DNA of 64,000 nt from Octopus sinensis (lineage: Eukaryota): NCBI RefSeq assembly GCF_006345805.1, contig NC_042998.1, positions 195,362,001-195,426,000 of the forward strand. The letters are read 5' to 3'. Under the pieces are notes generated by a model. It saw only the letters and a program-made list of their open reading frames with translations, was not told the origin of the DNA and did not search any database. Each line of letters begins with the position of its first letter. Positions within the stretch are counted from its first letter, which is position 1. This document shows, in pieces, positions 3,106 through 59,053 of this stretch. The translations under genes and the position numbers were made by a program.

Positions 3106-3132
3106 GTTCATTTATTTTTTCTCTCACCGACA

Positions 3133-6100
3133 ATGGCTAAGCTGGGTTGTGTGAATGTACGTGGAATGGGGACGAAATGGAAACAAATTTGTTTCCTGAA
3201 CGACCTCACGACACATGGAGTGGACATAGCTATTGCAACCGAGTCCAAGATGAACGAGGCCCAAGCGTTCTCGCCTCTTCTAAATGGGTTCGAGAAATTT
3301 ATTTCTCCTAGCCGAGGAAGAGGCAGAGGCATGGCAGTCCTTATCAGGAAGAGCTTGGACTTGCAGGTAAGTACTGTCTTTCTGGACCCAGAAGGCAGGC
3401 TGGTTGTTCTGGATGTGACCCACGTAAGTAAACAGTCCTTCAGGTTGGTAGCTGTCTACGCTCCGAATGAGTGTAGACAGACGGGTTTTTTTCGGAACCT
3501 GGAGCCCTTTTTAGCGACGTCGAAAACGGTAATCTTAGTAGGGGACTTTAACACTGTCCTTGAAGCGCGGGTCGACAGTGTTGGCTCAACCAATAGGAAG
3601 GGGAACCCTAGCCTCAAGGGTCTACTAGAGAGCTTTGATCTAGTGGACCGTTACCGACTGGATGAGCCGAGCGTTCCACAGTGGACGTGGAGTAACAACG
3701 ACGGCTCACACAGATCGTATTTAGATAGGATATTTATTAAGAAAAGAGATAAGGATACGTTTAGTTGTCCACAGTTTCACATTGTGCCTTACACGGATCA
3801 CAAATTTGTGACGTGTAGGATGCAGTTAGACAAGTGTCATAGACGGACCCGGGTACTGGAAGCTGAACAAGGCTATTTTGAATTGTGAAGACTTCCGTAC
3901 CCGGATTAAGGTGTTAGTACAGAGGGCATTGTGTGGCACCATCATTAACAATAGATGGTGGCACTCCCTCAAAAGAGCCATTCGTTCAGAGTCCATTAGA
4001 TTTAGCAATCAGCTAAGGTTAGATAGGTCTAGGATAGAGGACGATTTAGTTAAGAATCTAAACGAGGCAATGGAAGCTGGCTCTGCATCCGGAGTGATGG
4101 CGGCAAGGACGGTATTGTACCGTCACCTTAACTCCAAACACGAAGGTTGCAGAGTCAGAGCTAAGCTACGCGCTGGGAAACGAGAAGGTATTAACGTTGC
4201 CGGATGGGCCCGTCGAGTGGAGAGTCAGAGAGGTAACAAAGCCTCAATCAAGTCTTTAACTGACGAACAGGGACAAAAGATCTATGGACAGGAGGAGATG
4301 CAAAAGTTTCTTCACCAGCATTTCACCCGCGTGTTCGGGGGTGGTGTGGCGCCGGAGCGGGGGAGGACCTTAAAGGACTTCCTAGCCGGCGGACCGCGGC
4401 TCTCGGGGCGTGAGGTGGAGTGCTGTGAAGAAGCGATCACTCCCGCGGAGATAGAGGGGATACTGGCCGGATGCGCCGGGGAGAAGTCGCCGGGGTTGGA
4501 TGGTCTGCCCTACGAGTTTTACCAAAGTATGCCGGACTTGTTCGGGGGAATATTGGCAGGCGTCTACACGAACTGGCAGCAGAATGGGAGAATTCCCAGT
4601 TCTGTAAGCCGGGGAGTGGTGACGCTAATCCAGAAAGACCCGAGCAAGGGGGATAACATTAGTAACTACAGGCCCATAACTCTACTTAATGTAGAGTTAA
4701 AGATTTTGGCCAAGGTGTTGGCAAAAAGGTTGACGGTTGTCGTGGAGAAACTTGTAGGGAGAGCACAGACATGTGCAATTCCAGGCAGGTCGATCCAGGA
4801 CAATCTTCACCTTATACGCTACACCTTAGATAGGGTGGGTAAATTAACCGGCAAGGGCGGGGTAATGGTCCATTTAGACCAAAGTAAAGCGTTCGATAGG
4901 GTAGACCATGAGTACCTGGCGACGGTCCTCGAAGCGGCTGGACTGGGCCCTGAATTTCGCGGGTGGATCTCCGCTATGTATAGCGGCATCAAGTCCACCG
5001 TCCAGATAAACGGTTACCTAACGGAACCGTTTTCGATCGAATGTTCAGTTCGTCAAGGGCGCCCCTTGTCACCACTTTTGTACGTGTTGGCTCTTGAGCC
5101 ATTGCTGCGAAAGTTGGAGAGGCTGGGAAGTAACTCGGATGAGATCGGAGGTGGGAGGACGGTTACTGCTTATGCGGATGACGTCACCCTCATCGTGTCC
5201 AATGAGGCCCAGCTACCTTGTGTGGAAGAGGCTATCAGAGGATACGAGGCGGTGGCAGGAGCAAAGGTTAACAAGGACAAGTCGGTTGGCTTGCGCCTCG
5301 GCACCTGGAGGAGCAAGTCGATATCGTCCAGTGTCGTGGGACACTGGACGGATGGCCCTGTTAAGTTGCTAGGAGTTTGGTTTGGGCCAGACTCCCAAAC
5401 GGAGAGGAACTGGAGTGAGGTGACGAGCAAGGTGGAGGCCATAGTACGGACCTGGTCCGGAAGGTTTCTGTCCTTGAAAGGAAGGGTGGAGGTGGTACAG
5501 ATGTTCATTGCATCTGTAATCACTTACCGCCTGACCGTTGTCCCTTGCCCCGATTCATGGCTTAGCAAGTTGGAGCGAATCCTTTTCCGCTTTTTGTGGA
5601 AGGGAGGAAAGCCACTTGTGAGGCGCTCCGTTTGCTGCCAGGAACCGTTAAAGGGTGGGTTAGGAATGCCTTGGTTGATGATGCGCAGACATGCGTTGAG
5701 GCTGAAGCATCTCTGGCACCACCTGGAGGGTGATAAGGTGTGGAGTCCGCTGGCAGGGAAATTTTTCCCGAGACCGGCCTCCTTAGTGAATTTTAAACCC
5801 GGTCGCATCAAAAGATGGAAACTGACTTTATGGCAAAAGGAGTGCCGACAGGCACTCACGCTGATCCACAAGGCGGGCAAGGCCGGCTGCGGAAATACCA
5901 CCTCGGTATTTTATAGAAGGCTGGTAGAGGCAAAGAACGACGACGTCCTAGGAGGGGCTCTGGGGTTTGACGAAGACCAGCTTACCAACCTGTTTAAAAA
6001 GACTTTCAGGACGGGGTATTTGGATAATTTCCAAAGATCCCTGGCCTGGCAGTGCTATAGGAATGCTTTACCTGTTCGCGAGAAGTTATCGCGGCACGGA

Positions 6101-6520
6101 ATTTCAGTGCCACCGACGTGTCCAAGGTGCGAGTTGGACGATGAAACCGTCCAACACGCTTTTGTACACTGTCGGAAGTTGTCCGACTTGATAAGTTACG
6201 CAGAACACGTGTTATCGCATCTGGGACGAGTACAGCTGTCGGCTGAGTCTATGATTAAGAGGATACCGCCAACTGGACTCTCGAAGGAAGGTGAGGCATG
6301 TTTTCACTGCACGGTTGCAGTAGTAAAAGAATGCATGTGGCGAACAAGGATGGAAGGAGTCGCGATAGGATCCTTTGTCTCGGGCCCCGGCTTGCTCACT
6401 TACTTCAGATATCATCTGAAGAGCAAAATGGGGCTGGAAAAGAGGATCTTACCACGGGGTGTGTATGAGAAAAGATGGAAGGAAGTGGGAAAAAAGGTGG
6501 GTGTCAGAAACCCAGCTTAA
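3133..6520 (+). pseudogene. Tx1 ORF2: APE endonuclease, reverse transcriptase and C-terminal zinc finger, with one frameshift near 3844
   Basis: EN motifs NVRG, VYAP, GDFN, YLDRIF and TDH. GPGYWKLN resumes in the shifted frame at 3845. RT motifs KSPGLDG, YRPITLLN, DQSKAFDRVDH, RQGRPLSP and YADD, then CPRC..ETVQHAFVHC. Confidence 0.92.
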
Positions 6521-9391: not shown

Positions 9392-10922
<1,531 letters not shown>

Positions 10923-10939
10923 AAACCATATACCTGTGA

Positions 10940-11263
<324 letters not shown>

Positions 11264-12941
11264 TAACCTTGTAATATCTGTGGTAAATCTTTCTCTCAGA
11301 ACAGTGACTTACCTCAACACAAACATATTCATACAGGGTAGAAACCATACCCCTGTGATAGCTGTGCTAAGACATTCTCTGGAAACAGTCACTTTACTAT
11401 ACACAAATGCATTCACACTCAAGAGAAATCAATTCACAGTGATATCTGTGGCAAATCATTTACACAAAATCTTTTGTGATTTAAACAAGTCTTTCCTTGT
11501 GAAGTGCATCCCTAACACAGTGATATTTGTTGTATAACATTTCCTCAGAAGGACAAAGGACGTATCTCATAAAGACATCCACAGAATATAGAAACTATAT
11601 GAATGTGACATCTATGGTAGATCTTTGACATGAAATCATCCATTATTGAATCAAAAGAGCATTGACTGAGGAAGGAAAACACATCACTGTGATGTTAACC
11701 CTGAATCATTCTTTCAAATTGGTGAATTGTTTGTACACAGTCCTATCAATATGAAAGATATAACTGTAACCTAAGCTATTTCTGATAGCTCAATCTATGA
11801 AAATGATCAATTATTGAAATGTAAATGCATTCATACAGAAGACGAACCCCGATGATGATGATCCTCATCATTTAACATTCTCCTATTCATGCTTCTGTGG
11901 ATCAGATGGAATTCATTGATGGAGATTTTCTACATCTGGGTACCTTTCTTGTGACCAATGCTCACCTGTTTCCAAGCAAGGAATATTTTTCCTGGTGAGA
12001 CATATTTTACGCAAAGGACTGGAAATGAACAACTGCACAAGCATGACGGTCATGATGGCCCTTTACGAACATCACATAATATCTGGACAAGGGAACACAC
12101 ACACACACACACATATGTATGTCTGAAGAATTTCTTATAGGAAATATCTTTCATGTTTTCCCTACGTAAAAGTTTATAATTCCTATTAGGAAATGAAACA
12201 CATGTAATGCTGAATAAATAATATCAAACTTTTCTCCGGTCTCCTTATGTGATTTGTAATTACCTTGCAAAAAATATTATCCAAACCACCCACAAAAATA
12301 TTGTAGGTGTATATATGTAATCAGAAGCTTGTTTGTTCAACTGGTGTATTTATGTTAGTTAGAGTAGTGGGGTGAGAGGGTGGGAAAAGTAAAGGAAGGT
12401 GGTCTTATAATAATTCTGCTTGTCATTACGATACTTAGGTCGACAGTAACACTTTCATGTGATTGGAGAGAAAGGATAAGGCCATGAGTGAGACGGGAAG
12501 AGTGAGAAGTGTGTATGACGTGATAGGGGGACATATTTAGTTAAGGTTGTGATATAGAGGAGAGTAAGGAATATAATTTTAGAAGGTGGGTAATGTCCTG
12601 ATGGAGAGGTTAAAGAAAGGTAGAGAGAGACAGATGATGGTGAATACAAAGTGAAAAGTAATTTTTTTTTTACTTGAACTAAGTTTTTTTTACAAATCTT
12701 ACAAATTGAAATGTGTATTGACTCTCTGACCCATCACTTTGGCTTACAAGTTACCACTGATGTGGTTTTCAGAGTAAGCCATGTTACATTAAATTCTGAC
12801 CTCTATATTTTACATATAAGGTAATTTTTTTAGTATACACTTCTCGTGTTTCAGATAAGAAATTGTGCCCATGTAAATTTTAAAATGTAATCTTTTTCTG
12901 TTTATGAGAAAACTGGAAAAATATGAGCAAATATTTATTTT

Positions 12942-16102: not shown

Positions 16103-19100
16103 TTGAACTTTCATCTGCGTTTTGAGAAGTTTGCTGCCTTTTGTTGAGAGAGTTAGATTTTTTGCTCATCGTTGTTTGTGTTTGTTGTTGATTGAACGGT
16201 GCCCGTTGTGTAACGGTGGTTTTCGCCCTGCGGGGCGGAGAATTCTGTGTTTGCAATTGTTGTTGCCTTCGAGGTGGTTTTTGAAACATTTTTGAGAAAT
16301 GGATTTCGACTTGGCGTCGAGGAATGATTTTCCCGCGATGGTGAATTGGGGGACACTGAAGTGGCAAAACGGTCTTTTTCGGCCGCGGTGGGCGGAACCA
16401 TGATGGACGTTGAATCCAGGATCGAACAGCTGTTCGAATTTGGGAACTTTGTAAAGGTGGAGGGAGGCGAAATCGAGCTTTGCCGCCGCAGGCGAAGGTG
16501 CAAGAGGCAGAGGAAGGAACAGTTGTATACAAGGTGTATAGCTGCAAGGAGGGGAAAATTATGGACGTTAGAAGCGAGATGGTCGAGGAGTGCTTGTCCC
16601 CGGTGTGGGACAGGATTCGCCGTGTCGTTCGAGGTGCTCGCAGTGCTGCTGTTGAATCACATTTTGACTCGGCTGAGGTGGCAGGAGAGGTGTCATCTGT
16701 GACCCTGAAAAATGATGATATCATGTTGCTGCCCTCGTGTATGGGGGTGGGGAGCGGCTGAGCTGCTGGTGGAGGACGTACCGAGAGGGTGTGATATAGT
16801 GTGGGTGGCAGCGGCGGTCCTGCGCAATGTTGAGCGGGAGGTTTCGATTGTGCGGATGAGAGGGAGGGAGGAGGTGCGCTGGAGGGGACGGACGCTGGAG
16901 CTCCTCGTTCAGGCGGAGAACAAGATGTTGGAGAGCCTGCCCGATGGGATGTTTGATGAGGATGGAGCGTCCATGGGAGTGTCAGTGGAGGGGCGCAGAC
17001 CTAGGTGTTTTGAGTGTGGCGAGAGGGGTCACGTCCGCTCGAGCTGCTTAAAGGAGAGGAAAGACAACGAGGCCCCTCCTCAAGGTGCTTCAAGCACTGA
17101 AGGGGAGAGGGCGGAGGGGGAGAGCAGGACGACGACGGGCAGGGAAGCAGAGGCGGATGGATTGCACACGGGTGACACACAGAGGAAAGAAGGATAACAC
17201 CCTGGACTCCCCTCCCCAAACAAGGAAAAAATCAGCAAGCACCGCAGACATACACACAAAGCAAATTCCCCAGCCCTACCCCCACGGCACTGTATTCATT
17301 GGAAAATAGTTCGCCAAGCCCCTCCCCATAAAACAAGATGTGAAAAAGTCTTTAAAAAAAAATGATAATATCATTGCATTTGATGAAAAAAACGAGAGGG
17401 TATATAAATACTTTAAATTTTCCAAATTTAAACTATTTAGCAAGGCTACAGACATAAAAGCAACCACTCGCTTCGCAAAAATAAAGGAAGACGAGTGGAA
17501 GGAGGAAATACTACAAGAACATCTAAAGAATAGACTGATAAGAGACGTAACAAAGGAAGTACTGGAGGGTAAACTTGTTATAACCCCGGCAACCACACCT
17601 ACCCAGAGCCCGGTGGCAACGCCGGTTAAGAGCCCTGCAGCTACGACCACAAGGGAGGAAGAAGGGGAAGCGGGCAGATTTAAACTGTCATGCTCCCTTT
17701 CTCAACCGTAAGTTCATTTATTTTTTCTCTCACCGACAATGGCTAAGCTGGGTTGTGTGAATGTACGTGGAATGGGGACGAAATGGAAACAAATTTGTTT
17801 CCTGAACGACCTCACGACACATGGAGTGGACATAGCTATTGCAACCGAGTCCAAGATGAACGAGGCCCAAGCGTTCTCGCCTCTTCTAAATGGGTTCGAG
17901 AAATTTATTTCTCCTAGCCGAGGAAGAGGCAGAGGCATGGCAGTCCTTATCAGGAAGAGCTTGGACTTGCAGGTAAGTACTGTCTTTCTGGACCCAGAAG
18001 GCAGGCTGGTTGTTCTGGATGTGACCCACGTAAGTAAACAGTCCTTCAGGTTGGTAGCTGGGAAGTAACTCGGATGAGATCGGAGGTGGGAGGACGGTTA
18101 CTGCTTATGCGGATGACGTCACCCTCATCGTGTCCAATGAGGCCCAGCTACCTTGTGTGGAAGAGGCTATCAGAGGATACGAGGCGGTGGCAGGAGCAAA
18201 GGTTAACAAGGACAAGTCGGTTGGCTTGCGCCTCGGCACCTGGAGGAGCAAGTCGATATCGTCCAGTGTCGTGGGACACTGGACGGATGGCCCTGTTAAG
18301 TTGCTAGGAGTTTGGTTTGGACCAGACTCCCAAACGGAGAGGAACTGGAGTGAGGTGACGAGCAAGGTGGAGGCCATAGTACGGACCTGGTCCGGAAGTT
18401 TTCTGTCCTTGAAAGGAAGGGTGGAGGTGGTACAGATGTTCATTGCATCTGTAATCACTTACCGCCTGACCGTTGTCCCTTGCCCCGATTTATGGCTTAG
18501 CAAGTTGGAGCGAATCCTTTTCCGCTTTTTGTGGAAGGGAGGAAAGCCACTTGTGAGGCGCTCCGTTTGCTGCCAGGAACCGTTAAAGGGTGGGTTAGGA
18601 ATGCCTTGGTTGATGATGCGCAGACATGCGTTGAGGCTGAAGCATCTCTGGCACCACCTGGAGGGTGATAAGGTGTGGAGTCCGCTGGCAGGGGAATTTT
18701 TCCCGAGACCGGCCTCCTTAGAGAATTTTAAACCCGGTCGCATCAAAAGATGGAAACTGACTTTATGGCAAAAGGAGTGCCGACACGCACTCACGCTGAT
18801 CCACAAGGCGGGCAAGGCCGGCTGCGGAAATACCACCTCGGTATTTTATAGAAGGCTGGTAGAGGCAAAGAACGACGACGTCCTAGGAGGGGCTCTGGGG
18901 TTTGACGAAGACCAGCTTACCAACCTGTTTAAAAAGACTTTCAGGACGGGGTATTTGGATAATTTCCAAAGATCCCTGGCCTGGCAGTGCTATAGGAATG
19001 CTTTACCTGTTCGCGAGAAGTTATCGCGGCACGGAATTTCAGTGCCACCGACGTGTCCAAGGTGCGAGTTGGACGATGAAACCGTCCAGCACGCTTTTGT

Positions 19101-19711
19101 ACACTGTCGGAAGTTGTCCGACTTGATAAGTTACGCAGAACACGTGTTATCGCATCTGGGACGAGTACAGCTGTCGGCTGAGTCTATGATTAAGATGATA
19201 CCGCCAACTGGACTCTCGAAGGAAGGTGAGGCATGTTTTCACTGCACGGTTGCAGTAGTAAAAGAATGCATGTGGCGTACAAGAATGGAAGGAGTCGCGA
19301 TAGGATCCTTTGTCTCGGGCCCCGGCTTGCTCACTTACTTCAGATATCATCTGAAGAGCAAAATGGGGCTGGAAAAGAGGATCTTACCACGGGGTGTGTA
19401 TGAGAAAAGATGGAAGGAAGTGGGTTAAAAGGTGGGTGTCAGAAACCCAGCTTAACTATGGAGGGAGGAGATGAAAAAAAAGCTGCGGGGCCTTATAAAT
19501 TGCCGGGGTTTAAAACTTCGGTAAGATCGAAAGTTTATGTAATGTTATAATATTCTATTGGTCATGTAAAGGACAATTTACAGACGAATTTTTATAATGA
19601 ATAATCCAAATGTTATGGAAAATTTTTAATCGAACCTCTTAACTGTTTTTTGCATGTATGTCCTGTATTTGTCCTTCTATGTAACGATTGTATAATCATA
19701 ATAAAGAAATA
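16103..19711 (+). mobile_element. Tx1/L1-clade retrotransposon copy 2, internally deleted
   Basis: TSD cggagttagttccc at 16089-16102 and 19712-19725. The junction at 18057-18060 fuses the EN 5' part to the RT 3' part. Premature TAA at 19426-19428. Confidence 0.93.
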
Positions 19712-21887
19712 CGGAGTTAGTTCCCGTTGTTCTTCCTCATTAAGAGTATTTCTTGTTCTTGTTTCCCCCACGCACCTTGATTGCTTGATCAGTTCCACTT
19801 GACAACTGATATTTAAGAGAAAATCCAATCAAATATATACAAGTGATTGGTAATTAACTGTCTAAAGAAACAGATACCCCATTTACGATTATGTGGACCT
19901 GAAAAATATTAATTAACGTTTGTTGTAGAAATCTAGAAATTCTCTTGAAGCTGTCGTTGTCCACTCTGACTCCAGTTCTCACGTCTTCCTCCTTCACTCT
20001 TTCTCTCCATATCTATTACTATGTAAGTATTTATTTAAACATTTCTATTATATATGTGTCGTATTATGTACATTTATTTGTTTCGATGTGTTGAGAAAGT
20101 TAAAAGGAAAAAAAAAAAAATCTCACTAAGACGAAATTATACGAAAGGCTGTAATTTTAATACTTTTATTGTGTTGTCGTTTTCTTTTAGACATTTCATT
20201 GCACTTTTGGTTATTTTCTAAATTATTTGTAAAAACTTCGGATCAATCCCTTGTTTAGATAACATTTATCTTTCTTTCTAACGTGTAAATTCGACAATTT
20301 CGTTAAATGCGGGAAAATTACGATGTAATTTGTTAGAAATGGGGAATGTATAAAAACGAGTGTGCACTTGAAATACTGAAACGAAAAGCAAATATCGCAT
20401 CGAGAGGAAATGGAAAAGCTTTTATTTGAAACATAGGAAGTCTTTATTTCTGGTGGTTCTTCTGCATCATTAAAAGTTAGAATTAATATGGTTTTCTAAT
20501 TTATTTAATTTTTGTGTGTGTGTAGTGCTGCTTTAAGCACCTAATATAATCCCTCGTCACATATTTTTATTTGCGGGAATTTTCAGAAATTTCTGCGTAC
20601 GAGAATTCGTTTGGTCAGGCAACCAAAAAAAGAAAAAAATGAAGTGTGATTTATGAGCTATTTAGCTGTTATTTTTCGCACATCTCACGACCAGTATGGT
20701 AATAATTCTCTGCTTAAGTTCCTCTGGGCTTGCAGGAAGAGGGGAGACATAGACTAGGCCCTCCCTGAGAAAGAAATGGCAAGGTGTCAGCTCAGTGAAC
20801 GTGGCGGTCATTTCAACAGCACATTGCCTTCTTCAGGACGCGCCAAACTCTTTGGAGGAATCTGGCTTTCATTCTCCACATCAACCAATAATTTTTCCTA
20901 CATTAAAATTTCCCACAAAGATTTTGATGCTGTTAGTGAGACATCAATATTATTTACTGACATTTATTCATCTTTTATGCTCAGCAAAATATTAACGTTG
21001 AGCTAACCATATATATATATATATGTATTTGTATATATGGCTCCCATGCAGGTAGCATGTAAAAAGTACCATTTGAGCATGATTGATGCTAGTGCCGCCT
21101 GACTTGCACCCGTGCCGGTGGCACGTTAAAAGGCACCATTCAAGCATAGTCGATACCAATGCTACCTGACTGGCTCCGTGGCACATATAAAAGGCAACCG
21201 CTACACACTCAAACAGCATCCAGCTGTAGAAATCTTGCCTGATAAGATTGAAACCTTGTTCAACCTCATGGCTTGCCAGTCCTCAGTCAAACCTCACAAC
21301 CCATGCCAGCGTGGAAAGCAGATGTTAAACGATGATGATGAAGGTAGGGAAAGAGCAATATCTATTTTAGCAAACAAAGATACAAGACTGCAATGAAAAC
21401 ATCAGAAATCTAGTGTCATTTATATGTATATTGGTGTGTGTGTATGTGGAAGTGTGTCTATGACAGACTTTATATTCCAGGAGTTTGGTATTATAATAGA
21501 TGTGTCTCCTCTATGATATAAACATTTTGGTAATGCAGAAATTGGATAAATTTAATAGTACAGATAAAGAATTACATCTAAAATTTTTGGAACAAGAAAT
21601 GTCGTAAATTTGCACTTTTGAATATCTGCCTTTTAAACATACTTGATATCTTATATTACCTTCGTATTCTTTCAGAAAATCACATGAAATTGGCTAAAAA
21701 GTAATTTTTACTTTTAAAGAATCATCATTGTGTTTCATGTTTAAAAGACACTGCAAAGATATTCGACAAACGTATAATCCTGCTTCTATAAAACGTTGCT
21801 GAGTTACAGTAAAATATTTCTTCTGAAAGAGAAAGCATTTCTTTACTTCTGTGTCTGAAATGTGCAAGAGATAATTTTCTCTTTTAA

Positions 21888-22108
21888 CCCTTTAGTGTTT
21901 AAACTGGCCAAATCCGGCCCAATATATTCCACATGTTTTATATTCAAACTGGCGATATCTAGCCTCTCACACCTAACTTACAATGCCATTCTAAAAGTAA
22001 GTAATCACATCATTGAAACCTCAAAGCTGTAAGATGATCTAGGATTAATTCAAAACAATTTGAGTGAAAAAGTATTACATTTAACAGAATAATCTGAACA
22101 CTAAAGGG
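21888..22108. mobile_element. piggyBac-type TTAA MITE, unit 2 copy
   Basis: TTAA|ccctttagtgtt ... aacactaaaggg|TTAA. Unit 3 has a single TTAA at 31226-31229. Confidence 0.85.
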
Positions 22109-22328
22109 TTAAATATACATTGATAGATTTCCAAAGAGTATTTGCGGCATTTTTAAATATTGGCATTGATCACATTTAGAAGAAATATAAGAGAAGTGAT
22201 ATTTGTTTGGAATAAACTATAAAAACAAAAAGAAGAAAAATATCCATATATTTTGGTGAGAGAAGAAATATTTTTGAAAAGTTGTTGATCTGTACAACTT
22301 AAAGGTTCAGTTTTATTTTAGTGAAGAG

Positions 22329-23861
22329 ATGTCGGAAGAATTAGGAAAATCATCATATGACTGTGACATCTGCAAAGAGTCATTCTTAGAAGAAAGTAAA
22401 CTCAATCAACACAAACAAATTCATGCAGGGGAAGCACCATATCACTGTGATATCAGTGGTAAATCATTGTCTCACAGGAATAGCTTAACTCAACACAAAC
22501 GTATTCATACAGGAGAGAAACCATATCACTGTGATATCTGTGGTAAATCATTCTCTAATGGCAGTCACTTAACTCGACACAAACGGGTTCATACAGGAGA
22601 GAAACCTTATCATTGTGATATCTGTGGTAAATCTTTCTCTGATGCAGGTAGCGTAACTAAGCACAAACGTATTCATACAGGGGAGAAACCATATCACTGT
22701 GATATCTGTGGTAAATCATTCTCTCATAGCAGTGGCTTAGCTACTCACAAATGGGTTCATACAGAGGAGAAACCATATACCTGTGATATCTGTGGTATAT
22801 CATTCTCTCAAAACACTACCCTGACTACGCACAGACGTATTCATACTGGGGAGAAACCATATCACTGTGATATCTGTGGTAAATCATTCACTCATAGCAG
22901 TCACTTAACTGAACACACACGTATCCATACAGGAGAGAAACCATATTCCTGTGATATCTGTGGTAAATCATTCTCTCAGAACGGTGTCTTAACTAAACAC
23001 AAACGTATTCATACAGGTGAGAAACCATATCACTGTGATATCTGTGGTAAATCATTCTCTCAGAACGGTGTCTTAACTAAACACAAACATATTCATACAG
23101 GTGAGAAACCATATGACTGTGATATCTGTGGTAAATCATTCTCTCAGAACATTGTCTTAACTAAACACAAACGTATTCATACAGGTGAGAAACCATATCA
23201 CTGTGATATCTGTGGTAAATCATTCTCTCATAGCAGTGGCTTAACTACTCACAAATGGGTTCATACAGAGGAGAAACCATATACCTGTGATATCTGTGGA
23301 AAATCATTCTCTGATCACAGTCATTTAACTCAACACAAAAATATTCATACAGGGGAGAAACCATATCACTGTGATATCTGTGGTAAATCTTTCTCTCATA
23401 GCGGTGGCTTAACTTCACACACGCGTATCGATACGGGAGAGAAACCATATTCTTGTGATATCTGTGGTAATTTATTCTCTCATAGCAGTAGCTTAACTAA
23501 ACACAAATGGGTTCATACAGAGGAGAAACCATATACCTGTGATATCTGTGGTAAATCATTCTGTTTTGGCAGTGCTGTAACTCAACACAAACGTATCCAT
23601 ACAGGAGAGAAACCATATTCCTGTGATATCTGCGGTAAATCATTCTCTCATAGCGGTGGCTTAAATATACACAAAGGTATTCATACAGGGGAGAAACCAT
23701 ATACCTGTGATATCTGTGGAAGATCATTCTCTGAAAGCAGTAACTTAACTAAACACAAGCGTGTTCATACAGGGGAGAAACCATATACCTGTGATATCTG
23801 TGGTAAATCTTTCTCTCAGAACAGTGGCTTAACTCAACACAAACATATTCATACAGGGTAG
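22329..23861 (+). CDS. C2H2 zinc-finger protein, 510 aa, 18 tandem fingers (2 degenerate), no KRAB/SCAN domain visible
   Basis: Intact ORF of 28-aa CxxC-12-HxxxH repeats with TGEKPY linkers. Finger 2 has C>S and finger 13 has H>D. Confidence 0.92.
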   Translation: MSEELGKSSYDCDICKESFLEESKLNQHKQIHAGEAPYHCDISGKSLSHRNSLTQHKRIHTGEKPYHCDICGKSFSNGSHLTRHKRVHTGEKPYHCDICGKSFSDAGSVTKHKRIHTGEKPYHCDICGKSFSHSSGLATHKWVHTEEKPYTCDICGISFSQNTTLTTHRRIHTGEKPYHCDICGKSFTHSSHLTEHTRIHTGEKPYSCDICGKSFSQNGVLTKHKRIHTGEKPYHCDICGKSFSQNGVLTKHKHIHTGEKPYDCDICGKSFSQNIVLTKHKRIHTGEKPYHCDICGKSFSHSSGLTTHKWVHTEEKPYTCDICGKSFSDHSHLTQHKNIHTGEKPYHCDICGKSFSHSGGLTSHTRIDTGEKPYSCDICGNLFSHSSSLTKHKWVHTEEKPYTCDICGKSFCFGSAVTQHKRIHTGEKPYSCDICGKSFSHSGGLNIHKGIHTGEKPYTCDICGRSFSESSNLTKHKRVHTGEKPYTCDICGKSFSQNSGLTQHKHIHTG

Positions 23862-25070
<1,209 letters not shown>

Positions 25071-25901
25071 ATTTCTTATAGGAAATATCTTTCATGTTTT
25101 CCCTACGTAAAAGTTTATAATTCCTATTAGGAAATGAAACACATGTAATGCTGAATAAATAATATCAAACTTTTCTCCGGTCTCCTTATGTGATTTGTAA
25201 TTACCTTGCAAAAAATATTATCCAAACCACCCACAAAAATATTGTAGGTGTATATATGTAATCAGAAGCTTGTTTGTTCAACTGGTGTATTTATGTTAGT
25301 TTGAGTAGTGGGGTGAGAGAGAGGGAAAAGTAAAGGAAGGTGGTCTTATAAGAATTCTGCTTGTCATTACGATACTTAGGTCGAGAGTAACACTTTCATG
25401 TGATTGGAGAGAAAGGATAAGGCCATGAGTGAGACGGGAAGAGTGAGAAGTGTGCATGACGTGATAGGGGGACATATTTAGTTATGATTGTGATATAGAG
25501 GAGAGTAAGGAATATAATTTTAGAAGGTGGGTAATGTCCTGATGGAGAGGTTAAAGAAAGGTAGAGAGAGACAGATGATGGTGGTTGTTGTGATGGTGAA
25601 TACAAAGTGAAAAGTAATGTTTTTTTTTTTACTTGAACTAAGTTTTTTTTACAAATCTTACAAATTGAAATGTGTATTGACTCTCTGACCCATCACCTTG
25701 GCTTACAAGTTTCCACTGATGTGGTTTTCAGAGTAAGCCATGTTACATTAAATTCTGACCCCTATATTTTACATATAAGGTAATTTTTTTAGTATACACT
25801 TCTCGTGTTTCAGATAAGAAATTGTGCCCATGTAAATTTTAAAATGTAATCTTTTTCTGTTTATGAGAAAACTGGAAAAATATGAGCAAATATTTATTTT
25901 A

Positions 25902-27010
25902 TAATAATATAATAATAATGAAATTATTGTATACAGTGCTTAGGTGCACCAGAACTTGTCAGAAAGTGCATATAAAGTACATGCAGTAATATAGAAATGT
26001 CTGGAAAGCGAACAATGTATGTGTCAGATACATGCTTGTGTGTGTATGGAGGGGAGAAAATCAAGTGTAGCGTTGGCGGATCTCAGGAAGCATGGAAGTT
26101 TTGAAGGATGCAGTGCTCCGACAACTAACAACTGATGCCGGCAGTTTGTTCCATGCTTCAGCAACTCTCAGCATGAAAAAATGTTTCCTGAAGTCATGGG
26201 AGCTGTGCTGTTTTCTTACTTTGTAAATATGTCCACGGGTGTTAGATGGGTGGAGTTTGAAAAGGTGCTCAGAGTTATTGTTTGTACGATGGTTGATAAT
26301 TTTATGGGTGTCTGCCACTTCAACTGCCAGACGTCGGAGTTTCAATGTGTCCATGCCCAGGGAAGTAAGGCGTTCAGGATATGGCAAATGCCTGATGGAG
26401 GGTATTCTTTTGGTTGCACGTCGCTGAACAGCTTCCAGACGATTGATATCCTGGGCAAGATAAGGGTTCCAGACCAGTGATGCAAATTCCAGGTGAGGTC
26501 TTACCATAGCTATATAAAGCTGCAGATGTAGCCGGAGTGCGGCTCACAAAGGATTTGGTGAGTGATGCCAAGACACCCTCAGCCTTCTTGACAATTTTAG
26601 CGATGTGTTTTGTCCAACGCAAATCACTGTCGACAATAACACCCAGGTCACGTTCACATGAAGACTTTTTGAGACTAGCGTTGTGGAGGGAGTAGGTGGA
26701 CGCTGGGTTTCTCCCAAAAGGCATGGTGGTACATTTGTCCTCAGCCAGCTTGAGTTGCCAGTCCATGATCCACTGCTGCATTGTGTCCAGGTCTGCTTGC
26801 AATAGAGATCTATAGTGTACAGGATTTGACCTCTTTATTTCGAGGTACAGCTTGATGTCATCTGCATATTTCAGCACTGTGGCATTCTTTAAGTTGGCAT
26901 CTATGTCATTAACATATGCAACAAATAAAAGGGGGCCAAGAACAGATCCCTGTGGTACACCAGATGTCATCTCATAGGGCGAAGAGTGCTGTCCTAGAAC
27001 TGTGACAACC
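25902..27010 (-). mobile_element. 5'-truncated CR1-like LINE, unit 2 copy
   Basis: Same motifs in ORFs 26374..26970 and 26061..26507. Confidence 0.88.
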
Positions 27011-29048
27011 TCATAAAATTGTGCATAAAGTGTATTAAGTAATTACCGTATTCCAATTTCCTTCAGTTTTCAGTGAGTAGCAGATGAGCGACTATCTTTT
27101 GATGCAGACACAATACAGGCTCCACTTTAGAGTGTTTTGGTGTCAGGAATAACCCAATCCATTGCCTCACTGGACACCAAGGCCATGACTAGTGACCGGG
27201 ACCTTTTGTTTTTGGATAATGGATAAACAGCTAAAAGATTATATAAATATATATTTATAAAATTAAAGACTTAAATCTGTAAGAGATGCAAAGCAAAAAG
27301 AAAAGAATTCAATTAAGAATGCATCGGGTGAAAGAATATTGGTTTAAAAAACATACGACATAAAAATGAAGACTATAAGGAATATGAGGGAGATAGGGTG
27401 AATCCTTTCTATTTGACAATGATCGGGCATTGTCTTGTTGGAAGACTAATGCTTTTCTGTTGGTAATCTCCAGCCGCAGTTCTTTGATATATTTTGGTTC
27501 AAATTAGCCAGTTGACGACGGAACACAACAGAATGAATGGTCTGGTTTCATGGGAGAAGGTCATATTAATGCCTTTATGTTTCCACCAAACACAAAGGAC
27601 GGGTTTGTTGCCATGGATATTCATCTTTGGCTGCTTGGGGGATATTTCTGCAAACTCCAGGATCAGTTTTGCACATTAAGCATGCAATCCATTTTTCGTC
27701 TCCAGTCAGAAGTCGTTCCAAAAAAGGGCATGCTTTCTTTCCTTTTCAAAAGCATGTCCCAAACGGAATACTGGTCCCAGCAATTCTTATCTAAGAGTTT
27801 CAAGCACCCATATATTAAAGCAAAGAGTAAGATAGAAAGAGGAACAGAGAGAAGTGTACATGATATGTGATAGAGGGGAACATAATATTTCTTACATCGT
27901 TAAAAAAGTTAGTTGAAGTTGATGATATAGAGAAGTTAGCAATATAATTTTAGCAGAGTGGTGATGTTCTGATGGTGAGATTTGAGGCACAAAGAGAGAT
28001 AGAGAGATGATGGTTGTGGTGGAGGAAATGGTGATGGACAGTGCATAGTTAAAAGTAATTTGTTTTTATTGAACAAAGTTTTTTTTTATTACGTATTTGC
28101 AGAATCGTATGAATTAACCTGTAAAAAGTCCAAAATCACAATAATTTGACATTTCACACCCCTTCTTTACATGAACAAAATGACAGCTTCCAAATATTGT
28201 TTTCTTAATGGGTAAGAATGATCAAACTTTAAACCACAGTGTGACACATTCATATCTGTGTGAATACGCAGGTATACGTAAGTAGAATACATCCCCACTT
28301 TTGGCACTATTTTGTTAGTGACAGTATAAAGTTTATATGTATCACTACGCTGAATGTAGTCCAGTTCGTTTAACATGAAAAGGTAATTAAACACGTAAAA
28401 GAATAACAATGGCTTCGTATTGAGTTGTTTATCCCATTAGAACGAAATAAAACATAACATGGTGGCAGCGGTGGGATAATTAATCGGAAAATGTTTTTTA
28501 GGCAATTAAACCAATGGTATATTTTGATTTTAAAAAACGTAAATATTTTCTCTTTTTATTCATGATAAAGTTTTTTCCAAATAAATGAAAAGATAAGTAA
28601 CTAATTCTGCTCGATTACAAAGCAGAGGCAGAATAATCTCACGGTTTCTGCTGCAGGATTTCCACCTCGCGCTGACAATCCATTAGAGTAAGGGAGACTG
28701 CTATATTTGTCTTCACTGCCAAAAGACCCTTTTTTTTTTCAAAAAAAAGGGATGTTACACGTTCATATATATGCGTGTGTGTGTGGAATACGTCCCCGCT
28801 TTTGGCACTATTTTATAAGTATTACTACGTTGTGTCTAAAGTTATACCGGTGTCGCTGCGCGGAATGTAGTTCAGTTCGCGTAACATGAAAAAGTAATTA
28901 AACACGTAAAAGAATAACTATGCTTCGTATTGAGTTGTTTATCCCATTAGAAGAAAACAACACATAACAGTGATGAAGCCGAATATTGAAGAAATCTCTT
29001 TCACAAAATCCCAAATCTATTAAAGTAGAGCCGCAATTCTTTAAAGAC

Positions 29049-29062
29049 CGGAGTTAGTTCCC
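29049..29062 (+). other. Empty (pre-insertion) Tx1 target site
   Basis: A single cggagttagttccc joins the left flank (ttaaagac) directly to the right flank (gttgttcttcctcattaa). Confidence 0.92.
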
Positions 29063-31441
29063 GTTGTTCTTCCTCATTAAGTGTATTTCTTGTTCTTGTT
29101 CCCACGCACCTTGATTGCTTGATCAGTTCCACTTGACAACTGACATTTAAGAGAAAATCCAATCAAATATATACAAGTGATTGGTAATTAACTGTCTAAA
29201 GAAACAGATACCCCATTTACGATTATGTGGACCTGAAAAATATTAATTAACGTTTGTTGTAGAAATCTAGAAATTCTCTTGAAGCTGTCGTTTGTCCACT
29301 CAGACTCCAGTTCTCACGTCTTCCTCCTTCACTCTTTCTCTCCATATCTATTACTATGTAAGTATTTATTTAAACATTTCTATTATACATGTGTCGTATT
29401 ATGTACATTTATTTGTTTCGATGTGTTGAGAAAGTTAAAAGGAAAAAAAAAAATCTCACTAAGACGAAATTATACGAAAGGCTGTAATTTTAATACTTTT
29501 ATTGTGTTGTCGTTTTCTTTTAGACATTTCATTGCACTTTTGGTTATTTTCTAAATTATTTGTAAAAACGTCGGATCAATCCCTTGTTTAGATAACATTT
29601 ATCTTTCTTTCTAACGTGTAAATTCGACAATTTCGTTAAATGCGGTAAAATTACGATGTAATTTGTTAGAAATGGGGAATGTATAAAAATACGAGTGTGC
29701 ACTTGAAATACTGAAACGAAAAGCAAATATCGCATCGAGAGGAAATGGAATAGCTTTTATTTGAAACATAGGAAGTTTTTATTTCTGGTGGTTCTTCTGC
29801 ATCATTAAAAGTTAGAATTAATGTGGTTTTCTAATTAATTTAATTTTTGTGTGTGTGTAGTGCTACTTTAAGCACCTAATATAATCCCTCGTCACATATT
29901 TTTATTTGCGGGAATTTTCAGAAATTTCTGCGTACGAGAATTCGTTCGGTCAGGCAACCAAAAAAAGAAAAAAACTAAGTGTGATTTATGAGCTATTTAG
30001 TTGTTATTTTTCGCACATCTCACGACCAGTATGGTAATAATTCTCTGCTTAAGTTCCTCTGGGCTTGCAGGAAGAGGGGAGACATAGACTAGGCCCTCCC
30101 TGAGAAAGAAATGGCAAGGTGTCCGCTCAGGTGAACGTGGCAGCCATTTCAACAGCACATTGCCATCTTCAGGATGCGCCAAACTCTTTGGAGGAATCTG
30201 GCTTTCATTCTCCACATCAACCAATAATTTTTCCTACATTAAAATTTCCCACTAAGGATTTTGATGCTGTTAGTGAGACATCAATATTATTTACTGACAT
30301 TTATTCATCTTTTATGCTCAGCAAAATATTAACGTTGAGCTAACCTTATATATATATATATGTATTTGTATATATGGCTCCCATGCAGGTAGCATGTAAA
30401 AAGTACCATTTGAGCATGATTGATGCTAGTGCCGCCTGACTTGCACCCGTGCCGGTGGCACGTTAAAAGGCACCATTCAAGCATAGTCGATACCAATGCT
30501 ACCTGACTGGCTCCGTGGCACATATAAAAGGCAACCGCTACACACACTCAACAGCATCCAGCTGTAGAAATCTTGCCTGATAAGATTGAAACCTTGTTCA
30601 ACCTCATGGCTTGCCAGTCCTCAGTCAAACCTCACAACCCATGCCAGCGTGGAAAGCAGATGTTAAACGATGATGATGAAGGTAGGGAAAGAGCAATATC
30701 TATTTTAGCAAACAAAGATACAAGACTGCAATGAAAACATCAGAAATCTAGTGTCATTTATATGTATATTGGTGTGTGTGTATGTGGAAGTGTGTCTATG
30801 ACAGACTTTATATTCCAGGAGTTTGGTATTATAATAGATGTGTCTCCTCTATGATATAAACATTTTGGTAATGCAGAAATTGGATAAATTTAATAGTACA
30901 GATAAAGAATTACATCTAAAATTTTTGGAACAAGAAATGTCGTAAATTTGCACTTTTGAATATCTGCCTTTTAAACATACTTGATATCTTATATTACCTT
31001 CGTATTCTTTCAGAAAATCACATGAAATTGGCTAAAAAGTAATTTTTACTTTTAAAGAATCATCAATGTGTTTCATGTTTAAAAGACTCTGCAAAGATAT
31101 TCGACAAATAATCCTATAATCCTGCTTCTATAAAACGTTGCTGAGTTACAGTAAAATATTTCCTCTGAGAGAGAAAGCATTTCTTTACTTCTGTGTCTGA
31201 AATGTGGAAGAGATAATTTTCTCTTTTAAATATACTTGATAGATTTCCAAAGAGTATTTGCGGCATTTTTAAATATTGGCATTGATCACATTTAGAAAAT
31301 ATAAGAGAAGTGATATTTGTTGGAATAAACTATAAAAACAAAAAGAAGAAAAATATCCATATATTTTGGTGAGAGAAGAAATATTTTTGAAAATTTTGTG
31401 ATCTGTACAACTTAAAGGTTCATTTTATTTTTCTTGAAGAG

Positions 31442-33053
<1,612 letters not shown>

Positions 33054-49104: not shown

Positions 49105-49140
<36 letters not shown>

Positions 49141-49145
<5 letters not shown>

Positions 49146-49600
49146 TATAGAGACAAAACCACTATTTTGCAAAACAAACAAGGAAAGACTTAATCAATAT
49201 AATTATCTCCCTTTACGAAACACGCCAAGGCAACCATTAGGTTGTTCACTCTAAACATTCAAAATGCCACGACAAATATCAGAAATAAAGGAATTTTTGT
49301 TGACTGCGAGAAGGAAAGATGCAAAATCCGTAAAAATTAAGAAGAATCGGGATAATGTTAAATTCAAAGTTCGTTGTAGCCGCTTCTTGTATACACTGGT
49401 TATACATGACAGAGAAAAGGCTGACAAATTAAAGCAATCTTTACCACCAGGTTATTGATTAAGTCTTTCCTTGTTTGTTTTGCAAAAAATAGTGGTTTTG
49501 TCTCTATAATATTTATAATATTTTACTATAAAATTGGATTTTATCCTAAATCTGATTTTTTTCCCTGTAAATTTGGATTTATTCCCTAATATTATTATTA
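49141..49600 (+). mobile_element. Inverted-arm element enclosing the RPL38 copy (arms 49141-49199 and 49453-49513, tail to ~49600), in (TA)n
   Basis: The ~60-bp arms are exact reverse complements except for a 2-nt difference in an A run. Confidence 0.85.
49264..49458 (+). pseudogene. RPL38: 60S ribosomal protein L38 (eL38) intronless copy, C-terminally truncated retrocopy
   Basis: [63 protein letters not shown] is clearly eL38. It lacks the usual last ~7 residues, and the stop comes from the flanking repeat arm. Confidence 0.88.
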
Positions 49601-49627
49601 TATATATATATATATAATATATATAAC

Positions 49628-49666
<39 letters not shown>

Positions 49667-57791: not shown

Positions 57792-57999
57792 AGTTAATCC
57801 AAACAAGAAAACACAAAAAAAAAAACACAGCAACGCGAAGACGTGGAACAAATAAAGTATTATTGGACGCTCAGGAAAGAAGGGAAGAAGAAGGGTTTAA
57901 CGTTTCGAGCGGAGCTCTTCGTCGGAAACAAAGGAGAAGGAAAGATCCCGAGAAGGGAAGACAGAGGGAAAAAATTGCTGGCGGTGCTCACGAGGTCAC

Positions 58000-58003
<4 letters not shown>
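57792..58003 (-). mobile_element. ~210-bp (TA)n-inserted element with a hammerhead-like motif (57895-57929)
   Basis: Minus strand reads gttt CCGACGA a gagc-tcc-gctc GAAA cgt TA aac. Confidence 0.65.
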
Positions 58004-58039
<36 letters not shown>

Positions 58040-59053
58040 ATATATATATATAATTATTTGAGGGAATATTATTCCTAACTTACAGGGAAAAATTCAATTT
58101 AGAAATACTAAATCAAATTTCACAAAATATAATATATATATATATATATAAATTAGAAAAAAAAACACCTTTTATCAATTAAAAATGAGCAATTAAATTA
58201 CACCATCTAGAAAATTGCATATAATAAAAATATTAAAAATAAAACAACAATAATATACCAATGATTAAGTAAATTGCAAAATAATAATAAAAACGTATAT
58301 ATTAAAAGAAAGTCATTGCTGATAGTCAGGGATGTAGTCTCAATCGAAAGTTTAGTAAAGAAATATTCTTTTAATGAGAGGACTATAAGTAGAAAAATTA
58401 TAGAAAAAATTATAGAACTATAGCAAAAGACACAATGTAAAAGATATTTAAGAACATCTTAATCTGAAGTAACCATAAAGAATATGGGACTAGAGTAAAA
58501 GAGGTAAAGAAAAGGTTTAATATAAAAAAATAGTTGAGAAATCTTAATCAGAAGTAAACGCAACTAATGGTCTGATATGTAAAGCTTGATCACAGCTTAC
58601 GGTAATCGTAGTTAATATGTGTTGTAAAGAAAAGGTTTCCTAACGAGATGCGGGCACATTACAATAACCCCTTTCTAGTTCATAGTAGCGAGCACCTCAC
58701 TACAGTAGAGTGCATAGTACCTCACACCGCTAGTATGAGGCGCTGCGTGTTTGACAGTCGGTCAGGAGATTGAGTAATCTTTGCTTTGTGGTTTAGACTC
58801 CCATATAATCTTGGATAATGAAGTGAAATTAGCCTTGCTTTCATTCGGAAAATTATATACAGTACGTGGTTACTTCTCCTTTCCTCATTTAAATTATTAC
58901 TTTTATTATTCACTCTGCGGGTCTTATACTAAACCTGCTAGATCTTGCCATAGAGTTGTGTAGTACTCCCTTTATTTTCAATCAGTCTTACGAATCTCCT
59001 TTGATTTTTGGAATATTACGCTACCCACAATTATAATTACCCTCCCTCTCTCT

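Follow-up and report, generated by a model that had tools for sequence, protein, structure and literature searches.

A processed copy of RPL38, with a separate intron-bearing parent gene, lies between inverted arms assigned to a Penelope-like element (PLE) in the window analysed here, a 64,000-nt stretch of Octopus sinensis DNA (G000:C2:195362001-195426000). The explanation that we consider probable is a two-cDNA one, in which the cDNA of the long arm would have jumped onto RPL38 mRNA before end joining closed the insertion. More generally, and here we lean only slightly towards the idea, Hydra-type PLEs would normally twin-prime on RNA that is sense and often spliced, and host RNA would generally be taken up where the two cDNAs meet, both by jumps and by splicing onto the element's acceptor. 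The layout that the original prediction had read from the letters, (TA)n, arm, RPL38, inverted arm, tail and (TA)n, was found with every part in place, the inverted arm beginning at 49453 as proposed. Element positions are counted from this base as +1, minus values being 5' of the arm start. The features are as follows.

49105-49139, no strand: (TA)n left flank, target site
49140-49199, minus strand: short arm, inverted copy of PLE terminal-repeat positions 1-62 (with 49453 as position 1)
49200-49450: RPL38 host piece as matched, within 253 nt between the arms
49200-49248, plus strand: RPL38 exon 1, non-coding; parent G000:C1:136814263-136814215 (minus strand), 0 mismatches
49207-49214, plus strand: pyrimidine tract
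49249-49266, plus strand: RPL38 exon 2, ending in ATG (49264-49266); parent G000:C1:136813723-136813706
49267-49327, plus strand: RPL38 exon 3; parent G000:C1:136810114-136810054
49328-49450, plus strand: RPL38 exon 4; parent G000:C1:136807292-136807170
49264-49458, plus strand: truncated RPL38 frame of 64 codons, its stop lying within the long arm
49451-49453, plus strand: 3' junction
49453-49514, plus strand: long arm, the portion pairing with the short arm, element sense strand
49515-49592, plus strand: PLE 'tail' extension; the ORF begins shortly past the tail in full elements
49599-49648, no strand: (TA)n right flank

A genome search for RPL38 returned four matches, the window itself and three exon blocks on C1. 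The parent that the original prediction had wanted located is there, intron-bearing and with five exons, of which the 18-nt exon and the last exon were placed within the 20 kb examined. Over the 251 nt of window positions 49200-49450 there is no mismatch to parental exons 1-4, and the three parental introns (491, 3,591 and 2,761 nt, all GT-AG) are precisely missing. The ORF at 49264-49452 consists of 63 RPL38 codons (Pfam PF01781, E 7e-35), which confirms the uninterrupted codons 1-63 reported from the sequence; a Tyr follows codon 63, then the stop at 49456-49458. The copy is without the last RPL38 exon, is bounded by element arms and (TA)n, and has neither poly(A) nor 3' UTR, as had been claimed. 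It is likely young and, as a gene, non-functional and dead. A LINE-type processed pseudogene was rejected, as there is no intact 3' end with poly(A) and the flanks are arms and (TA)n instead of a target-site duplication (TSD).

The two arms are nearly identical, the short arm (60 nt) differing from its 62-nt long-arm counterpart only by 2 nt in a T run; each strand of the 64-kb window has a single occurrence of the arm's first 31 nt. Both RPL38 junctions have a 1-nt overlap. On the left, base 49199, the end of the short arm, is common to the PLE arm and the RPL38 parental gene. The 'short linker' seen earlier at 49200-49206 turned out to match parental RPL38 directly 5' of the pyrimidine tract, so that the host piece begins 7 nt before ctcccttt (49207-49214) and reaching a TOP cap is not shown for RPL38. 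On the right, the GT at 49451-49452 is compatible with the start of the last exon and with that of intron 4, and the third base, T (49453), with intron 4 and with the element. Since these bases fit several sources, a spliced mRNA, an RNA retaining intron 4 and a free 5' exon are indistinguishable as templates.

Is the insertion real? In run X1, a 60-nt contig crosses the exon 3/4 junction at depth 19, the intron-bearing contigs having depths of 53 and 57, and in run X15 contigs at depth 7 cross the exon 1-3 and exon 3/4 junctions; both runs are DNA-like, and perhaps dependent on the assembly or on each other. A junction depth of 19 against 53-57 would fit a real copy on one homologue, one per diploid genome. 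In the DNA-like runs the exon 4 contigs continue into other sequence, and the read-based contigs skip the repeats at both flanks, with no joint across the insert; no empty allele was seen in them. Two raw-read runs (X21 and X22) have zero depth on the RPL38 part, which, with only 3% of each run and filtered reads, is no evidence of absence. An assembly artefact, a genuine exon or a capture of genomic DNA by a DNA transposon is barely credible. The arm-RPL38 junctions are indeed known from the assembly alone, no spanning piece being present among the contigs listed; but the exon-junction contigs in DNA-like runs argue against an artefact, the five-exon parent on C1 rules out a genuine exon or a sole RPL38 locus, the three introns are precisely missing, and the element encodes a reverse transcriptase (RT) and loses its own intron.

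A 140-nt query made of arm and tail gave 291 candidates, 40 of which were scored, at 93-100% identity, and an exact 41-nt arm word has 2,615 matches in the genome (control, 0). In two family copies (L044 and L045) a frameshifted ORF lies on the same strand 3' of the tail, in which RT motifs (GAPDS, YRDD, YLD) followed by a GIY-YIG region (VVY..YIG) were recognised by eye. The same copies have DKT, RIKWK (RWK-like), a CxCX5C linker and CxxC + CxH, without a CCHH pair in the core. With Pfam, four element ORF pieces matched neither an RT nor a GIY-YIG domain; PF26215 was found in Atlas neighbours and in homologues, and PF00078 in some Atlas neighbours. Inverted terminal repeats with an optional tail are present across the family copies, as in PLEs of the EN+ type, and the family targets are (TA)n, as in the Hydra clade. 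A hammerhead-like motif (core, stem I, stem II, GUA) lies 36-80 nt 5' of the arm start; Rfam gave no hammerhead among 14 matches, and the fold z-score was 0.87.

Judged from these motifs, the arms are the terminal repeat of a PLE with an RT and GIY-YIG ORF, and this PLE carries Hydra-clade motifs when set against the description of these C-terminal EN+ PLEs by Craig et al. 2021 (PMC8557442). The clade likewise has RT then GIY-YIG in one ORF, DKT, an RWK-like motif, a CxCX5C linker, CxxC + CxH, a GIY-YIG without an internal CCHH pair, (TA)n targets, a ribozyme-like motif and an inverted 5'-truncated copy plus tail. The tail differs (about 78 nt in our element versus 30-40 in the clade), and Hydra-1_Obim, an octopus family listed in the supplement of PMC8557442, has a different ribozyme row from this element's. 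Neptune and Naiad were discarded, as their CX2-5CxxC linker, CCHH and, for Naiad, N-terminal EN are not matched by the element motifs. A Pack-type DNA transposon with TIRs is contradicted by the RT ORF and by the loss of element and host introns. The assignment of the arms to a PLE in the original prediction thus stands, with an RT and GIY-YIG ORF adjoining arm and tail in family copies, and spliced copies of the element exist, which sets DNA transposons aside. A diverged relative (77%) of this PLE end is found at 57998-58330 of the window, inside a TA run.

The inverted short-arm/long-arm form is the normal insertion of this PLE family and not a product of the capture. In an unbiased sample, the first 100 matches of the 41-nt word (C1, by position), 119 arms made up 43 head-to-head pairs and 33 unpaired arms; in 42 of the 43 a short arm faces a long one, four pairs being near-identical neighbours in one cluster. 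The two outer ends are fixed. PLEs are usually described as retaining introns. The intron of this element (leader, GTAAGT ... TTTAG, acceptor at -84) is kept in long copies and spliced out in short ones. Among 104 distinct acceptor sites, 51 are preceded by the spliced leader, 42 by the intron and 11 by other sequence, and both arms are spliced in 9 of the 59 loci scanned. The spliced leader is often present in both arms, which are thus copies of sense RNA.

The reach of the two arms is often unequal. In two loci (L134 and L181) the 5' reach of the short arm exceeds that of the long arm by more than 70 nt, in two others (L128 and L133) the long arm reaches much further 5' than the short one, and in L203 host exons are present on the long arm only. 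The arms are therefore templated independently, neither simply copying the other. This bears on the serial model of the original prediction, in which a single cDNA runs from tail to arm to RPL38 as far as the cap and folds back to make the inverted arm. Both arms do end at the same base, with the same small length variant beside the outer end, and self-priming has been proposed for PLE palindromes (PMC3846280). However, the short arms of L134 and L181 contain sequence missing from the long arms, the outer end of the short arm is fixed whether there is a capture or none, and the host piece begins 5' of the pyrimidine tract. We thus find this serial route very improbable, and its step that the enzyme 'then made the inverted arm' does not hold, as the arm is also there in ordinary insertions and may carry 5' sequence absent from the long arm.

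Where do the arms end within the element? Among the inner ends of 123 arms, 25 belong to long and unspliced arms; the 98 others were classified at -114 to -82 (42), -81 to -37 (3), -30 to -5 (42) and +5 to +40 (11). The -114 to -82 class is likely the RNA start of the element. The inner ends of the family are bimodal, one group lying near this probable RNA start (-107) and the other immediately 3' of where the ribozyme is predicted to cut (-36); of 13 arms in a selected set, 9 depart from the element 0-2 nt past the predicted cut. Ends at this place may have arisen by cleavage in vivo or by the RT stalling at the fold. The 5' intron of about 1.8 kb, GT-rich and with internal tandem repeats, is seen in long copies only (L037, L038, L044 and L045). 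One locus (L202, G000:C30:9595100-9596800) holds 5-6 head-to-tail units of about 305 nt (arm, tail, ORF start), an array that resembles the retrozyme type, but without a ribozyme.

Host exons were also found spliced onto the element's acceptor. L248 (G000:C2:201067933-201068500) and L203 (G000:C1035:17430-17810) both contain exon sequence of an IQ-motif gene (PF00612), presumably CEP97-like, whose parental exon (G000:C2579:8475-8582) lies between AG and GT. In L248 the end of this exon abuts the PLE acceptor exactly (C2:201068138) and an upstream coding stretch abuts its start in frame; in L203 the exon is followed by a 73-nt SINE-derived exon, flanked by AG and GT in the parent, and then by the same acceptor. 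The best reading is that two separate insertions arose from chimeric transcripts in which host exons had been spliced to a sense PLE lying in the IQ gene, a 5' transduction by splicing that in L203 went through an exonised SINE. The source PLE copy of the two was not found, nor was the upstream parental exon of L248, the contig ending 5 kb past the exon.

Could the RPL38 insertion have the same origin? The RT would then have copied one ready-made chimeric RNA, RPL38 exons 1-4 plus the PLE end, formed by splicing, by read-through out of a source PLE copy in intron 4 or by RNA ligation. The break does sit at the end of exon 4, and L203 and L248, with host exon ends joined exactly to the acceptor, show that such a route exists in the family. 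But RPL38 does not fit the acceptor-splicing route well, its joint being at +1, 84 nt from the acceptor. Moreover, no PLE arm is present in the 20 kb around the RPL38 parent, the pattern for the RPL38-element junction had 13 matches, of which only the window has this junction, and a continuous chimeric template leaves unexplained that the short arm also ends at +1. We regard a chimeric template as quite unlikely here.

We then considered foreign sequence at the joint of other copies, flagging as filler at least 40 nt left unmatched between paired arms. Seven of the 43 sampled pairs were flagged, and four fillers are foreign (L054, L048, L130 and L133); those of L063 and L180 were dropped, read as divergent element interior, and that of L120, read as an AT-rich palindrome. 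The L054 filler, on C1, is 128 nt long. It stems from a radial-spoke-head gene on C2 (PF04712, E 1.7e-5, slightly under the curated cut-off), two exons of which are present without their 657-nt GT-AG intron; we take this gene to be RSPH9-like. The switch point of L054 is 7 nt, AAAATTT, common to the mRNA and the element. The original prediction had suggested a search for other mRNA 5' fragments bracketed by such arms; further spliced mRNA pieces do lie between them, in L054 and, as exons, in L203 and L248. It had also held that RPL38 was copied to the cap, which fits neither the RPL38 piece, beginning 5' of the pyrimidine tract, nor the radial-spoke capture, an internal mRNA fragment. Scaled up from one spliced capture in 43 pairs, the genome would contain a few tens of them, though the margin is very wide.

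The L048 filler, about 600 nt long, consists of two permuted pieces of C28, and those of L130 and L133 copy DNA about 0.8-0.9 kb away. Selected sets added further local fillers (L008, L087, L103 and L217), and in all six local cases the source is about 0.8-1.1 kb off, in either orientation. Such fillers could be supplied by DNA repair alone, so that the joint takes DNA templates too. Targeted junction patterns (43 of 68 matches examined) gave mostly element-derived rearrangements and 2 foreign fillers; a further pattern set of 17 matches gave 1 filler (L243) and 4 non-element sequences. The inserts of L051, L100, L102 and L243 are without a traced source. In L051 (G000:C1:2758300-2758700) foreign sequence is joined near the acceptor position, there is no left arm, and no local source was found within 1.5 kb. 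In L243 (G000:C8877) the filler between the arms is about 600 nt, and beyond the TA runs, on either side of the insertion, lies an 11-nt duplication, which suggests that the TA runs were partly made during insertion.

These fillers raise another reading of the window, in which a loose RPL38 cDNA made by another RT, or an RNA-copying repair polymerase, bridged the PLE cDNA ends and the PLE only gave the break. The six traced fillers of local genomic sequence are in its favour, as are the 1-nt overlaps at the RPL38 junctions, typical of end joining, and the abundance of other RT-coding elements in the window. Nevertheless, L054 shares its 7 nt exactly where the arm cDNA would switch, L203 and L248 show the element's RT copying host exons, and neither poly(A) nor another element's 3' end is present. 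This bridging is unlikely in our view, and a template switch onto RPL38 mRNA, as first proposed, is judged the likeliest step.

The two-cDNA explanation that we prefer would proceed as follows. The PLE protein would cut the (TA)n tract, and each cut strand would prime one cDNA on the element's own sense RNA, at two start sites that may lie at about +62-70 and +140-155; the short arm would be the second cDNA, primed off the left flank. Both cDNAs would halt at the same base, +1. That of the long arm would jump onto RPL38 RNA at or beside the end of exon 4, with a 0-1 nt overlap, and copy it for 251-253 nt as far as 49200, and the two inner ends would be united by end joining with a 1-nt overlap. 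Given the arm ends and the in vitro two-strand extension described below, one cDNA per strand, joined at the inner ends, is the simplest model. Against it stand the RPL38 overlaps, of only 1 nt each, and the local genomic fillers. The RPL38 break, at most 3 nt from the exon end, also fits a chimeric RNA, and the inner end at +1 does not coincide with the RNA 5' end (about -107) or with the place where the ribozyme is predicted to cut (-36).

This scheme has precedents in part. A PLE protein was shown in vitro to cut both strands and to extend them, starting at two internal RNA sites on either side of the tail (PMC11167929); the assay concerns another PLE clade, and template jumps are outside its scope. 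How PLE inverted repeats form and which RNA strand is copied are stated as open questions in PMC8557442, PMC3846280 and PMC11167929. An antisense self-priming model for head-to-head repeats and intron retention was put forward in PMC3846280 and echoed in PMC6431247 and PMC8557442. In our family the template is recognisable as sense RNA, because the arms contain spliced leaders and spliced host mRNA. If twin priming on sense RNA is the normal mode of Hydra-type PLEs, head-to-head PLE repeats are explained and the antisense self-priming model is contradicted.

Transport of a host gene by PLEs is not new. In the rotifer Adineta vaga, Penelope pLTRs mobilised an intron-containing host gene in trans (Arkhipova et al. 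2013, PMC3846280). There too, host sequence lies between PLE terminal repeats with no element ORF, and other captured sequences are found between solo repeats. However, the rotifer gene kept all its introns and has direct repeats and an 8-bp TSD, whereas in the octopus the introns are removed, the template is sense RNA and the cargo lies between inverted arms. The original prediction had presented a poly(A)-independent route to retrogenes as apparently undescribed for PLEs. As the transport of an intron-containing gene by PLE ends is published, the novelty is limited to the spliced templates and the joint as capture site. Neither a spliced 5' leader nor the capture of host mRNA, both seen here, has a mention for the Hydra clade in the available part of PMC8557442. 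Our literature search found no paper on spliced mRNA between PLE arms, which is weak evidence of absence, subscription papers and older PLE reviews being thinly covered; the part of a 2026 retrozyme preprint available to us contains neither 'template switch' nor 'capture'.

Two other retroelement systems are comparable. LTR-mediated retroposition (Tan et al. 2016, PMC5131818) also yields truncated retrocopies that lack poly(A) and have element ends on both sides, with microsimilarity at the switch points, but through two switches inside the particle and with both LTRs direct, whereas one switch and an end join of opposed cDNAs are presumed for the PLE. L1 twin priming (PMC11702581; U6/L1 chimeras, PMC4476161) similarly involves two cDNAs from opposite break ends, with a second RNA or nearby genomic DNA at the cDNA joint. 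Yet L1 primes on poly(A) and twin-primes occasionally, whereas the PLE would prime internally, always at one of two sites, and its usual insertion has two arms.

The capture of spliced mRNA by PLEs would be a way of generating gene copies for which no poly(A) tail is required, and PLEs would join the known sources of processed gene copies in animals. If true, each genome should have tens of spliced gene fragments devoid of poly(A), and retrocopy pipelines would miss or misassign such copies, which have neither poly(A) nor TSDs. As the family is large and young, with 2,615 exact copies of the arm word, the model can be tested on genomes and with the in vitro assay that already exists.

The window has other features. 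C2H2 zinc-finger arrays are found at 9471-11460, 22408-24400 and 31548-33053, and LINE ORFs at 3106-6517. The segment 5122-16105 is repeated at 18057-29066 with 98.5% identity, which may reflect either a recent tandem duplication or a haplotype artefact.
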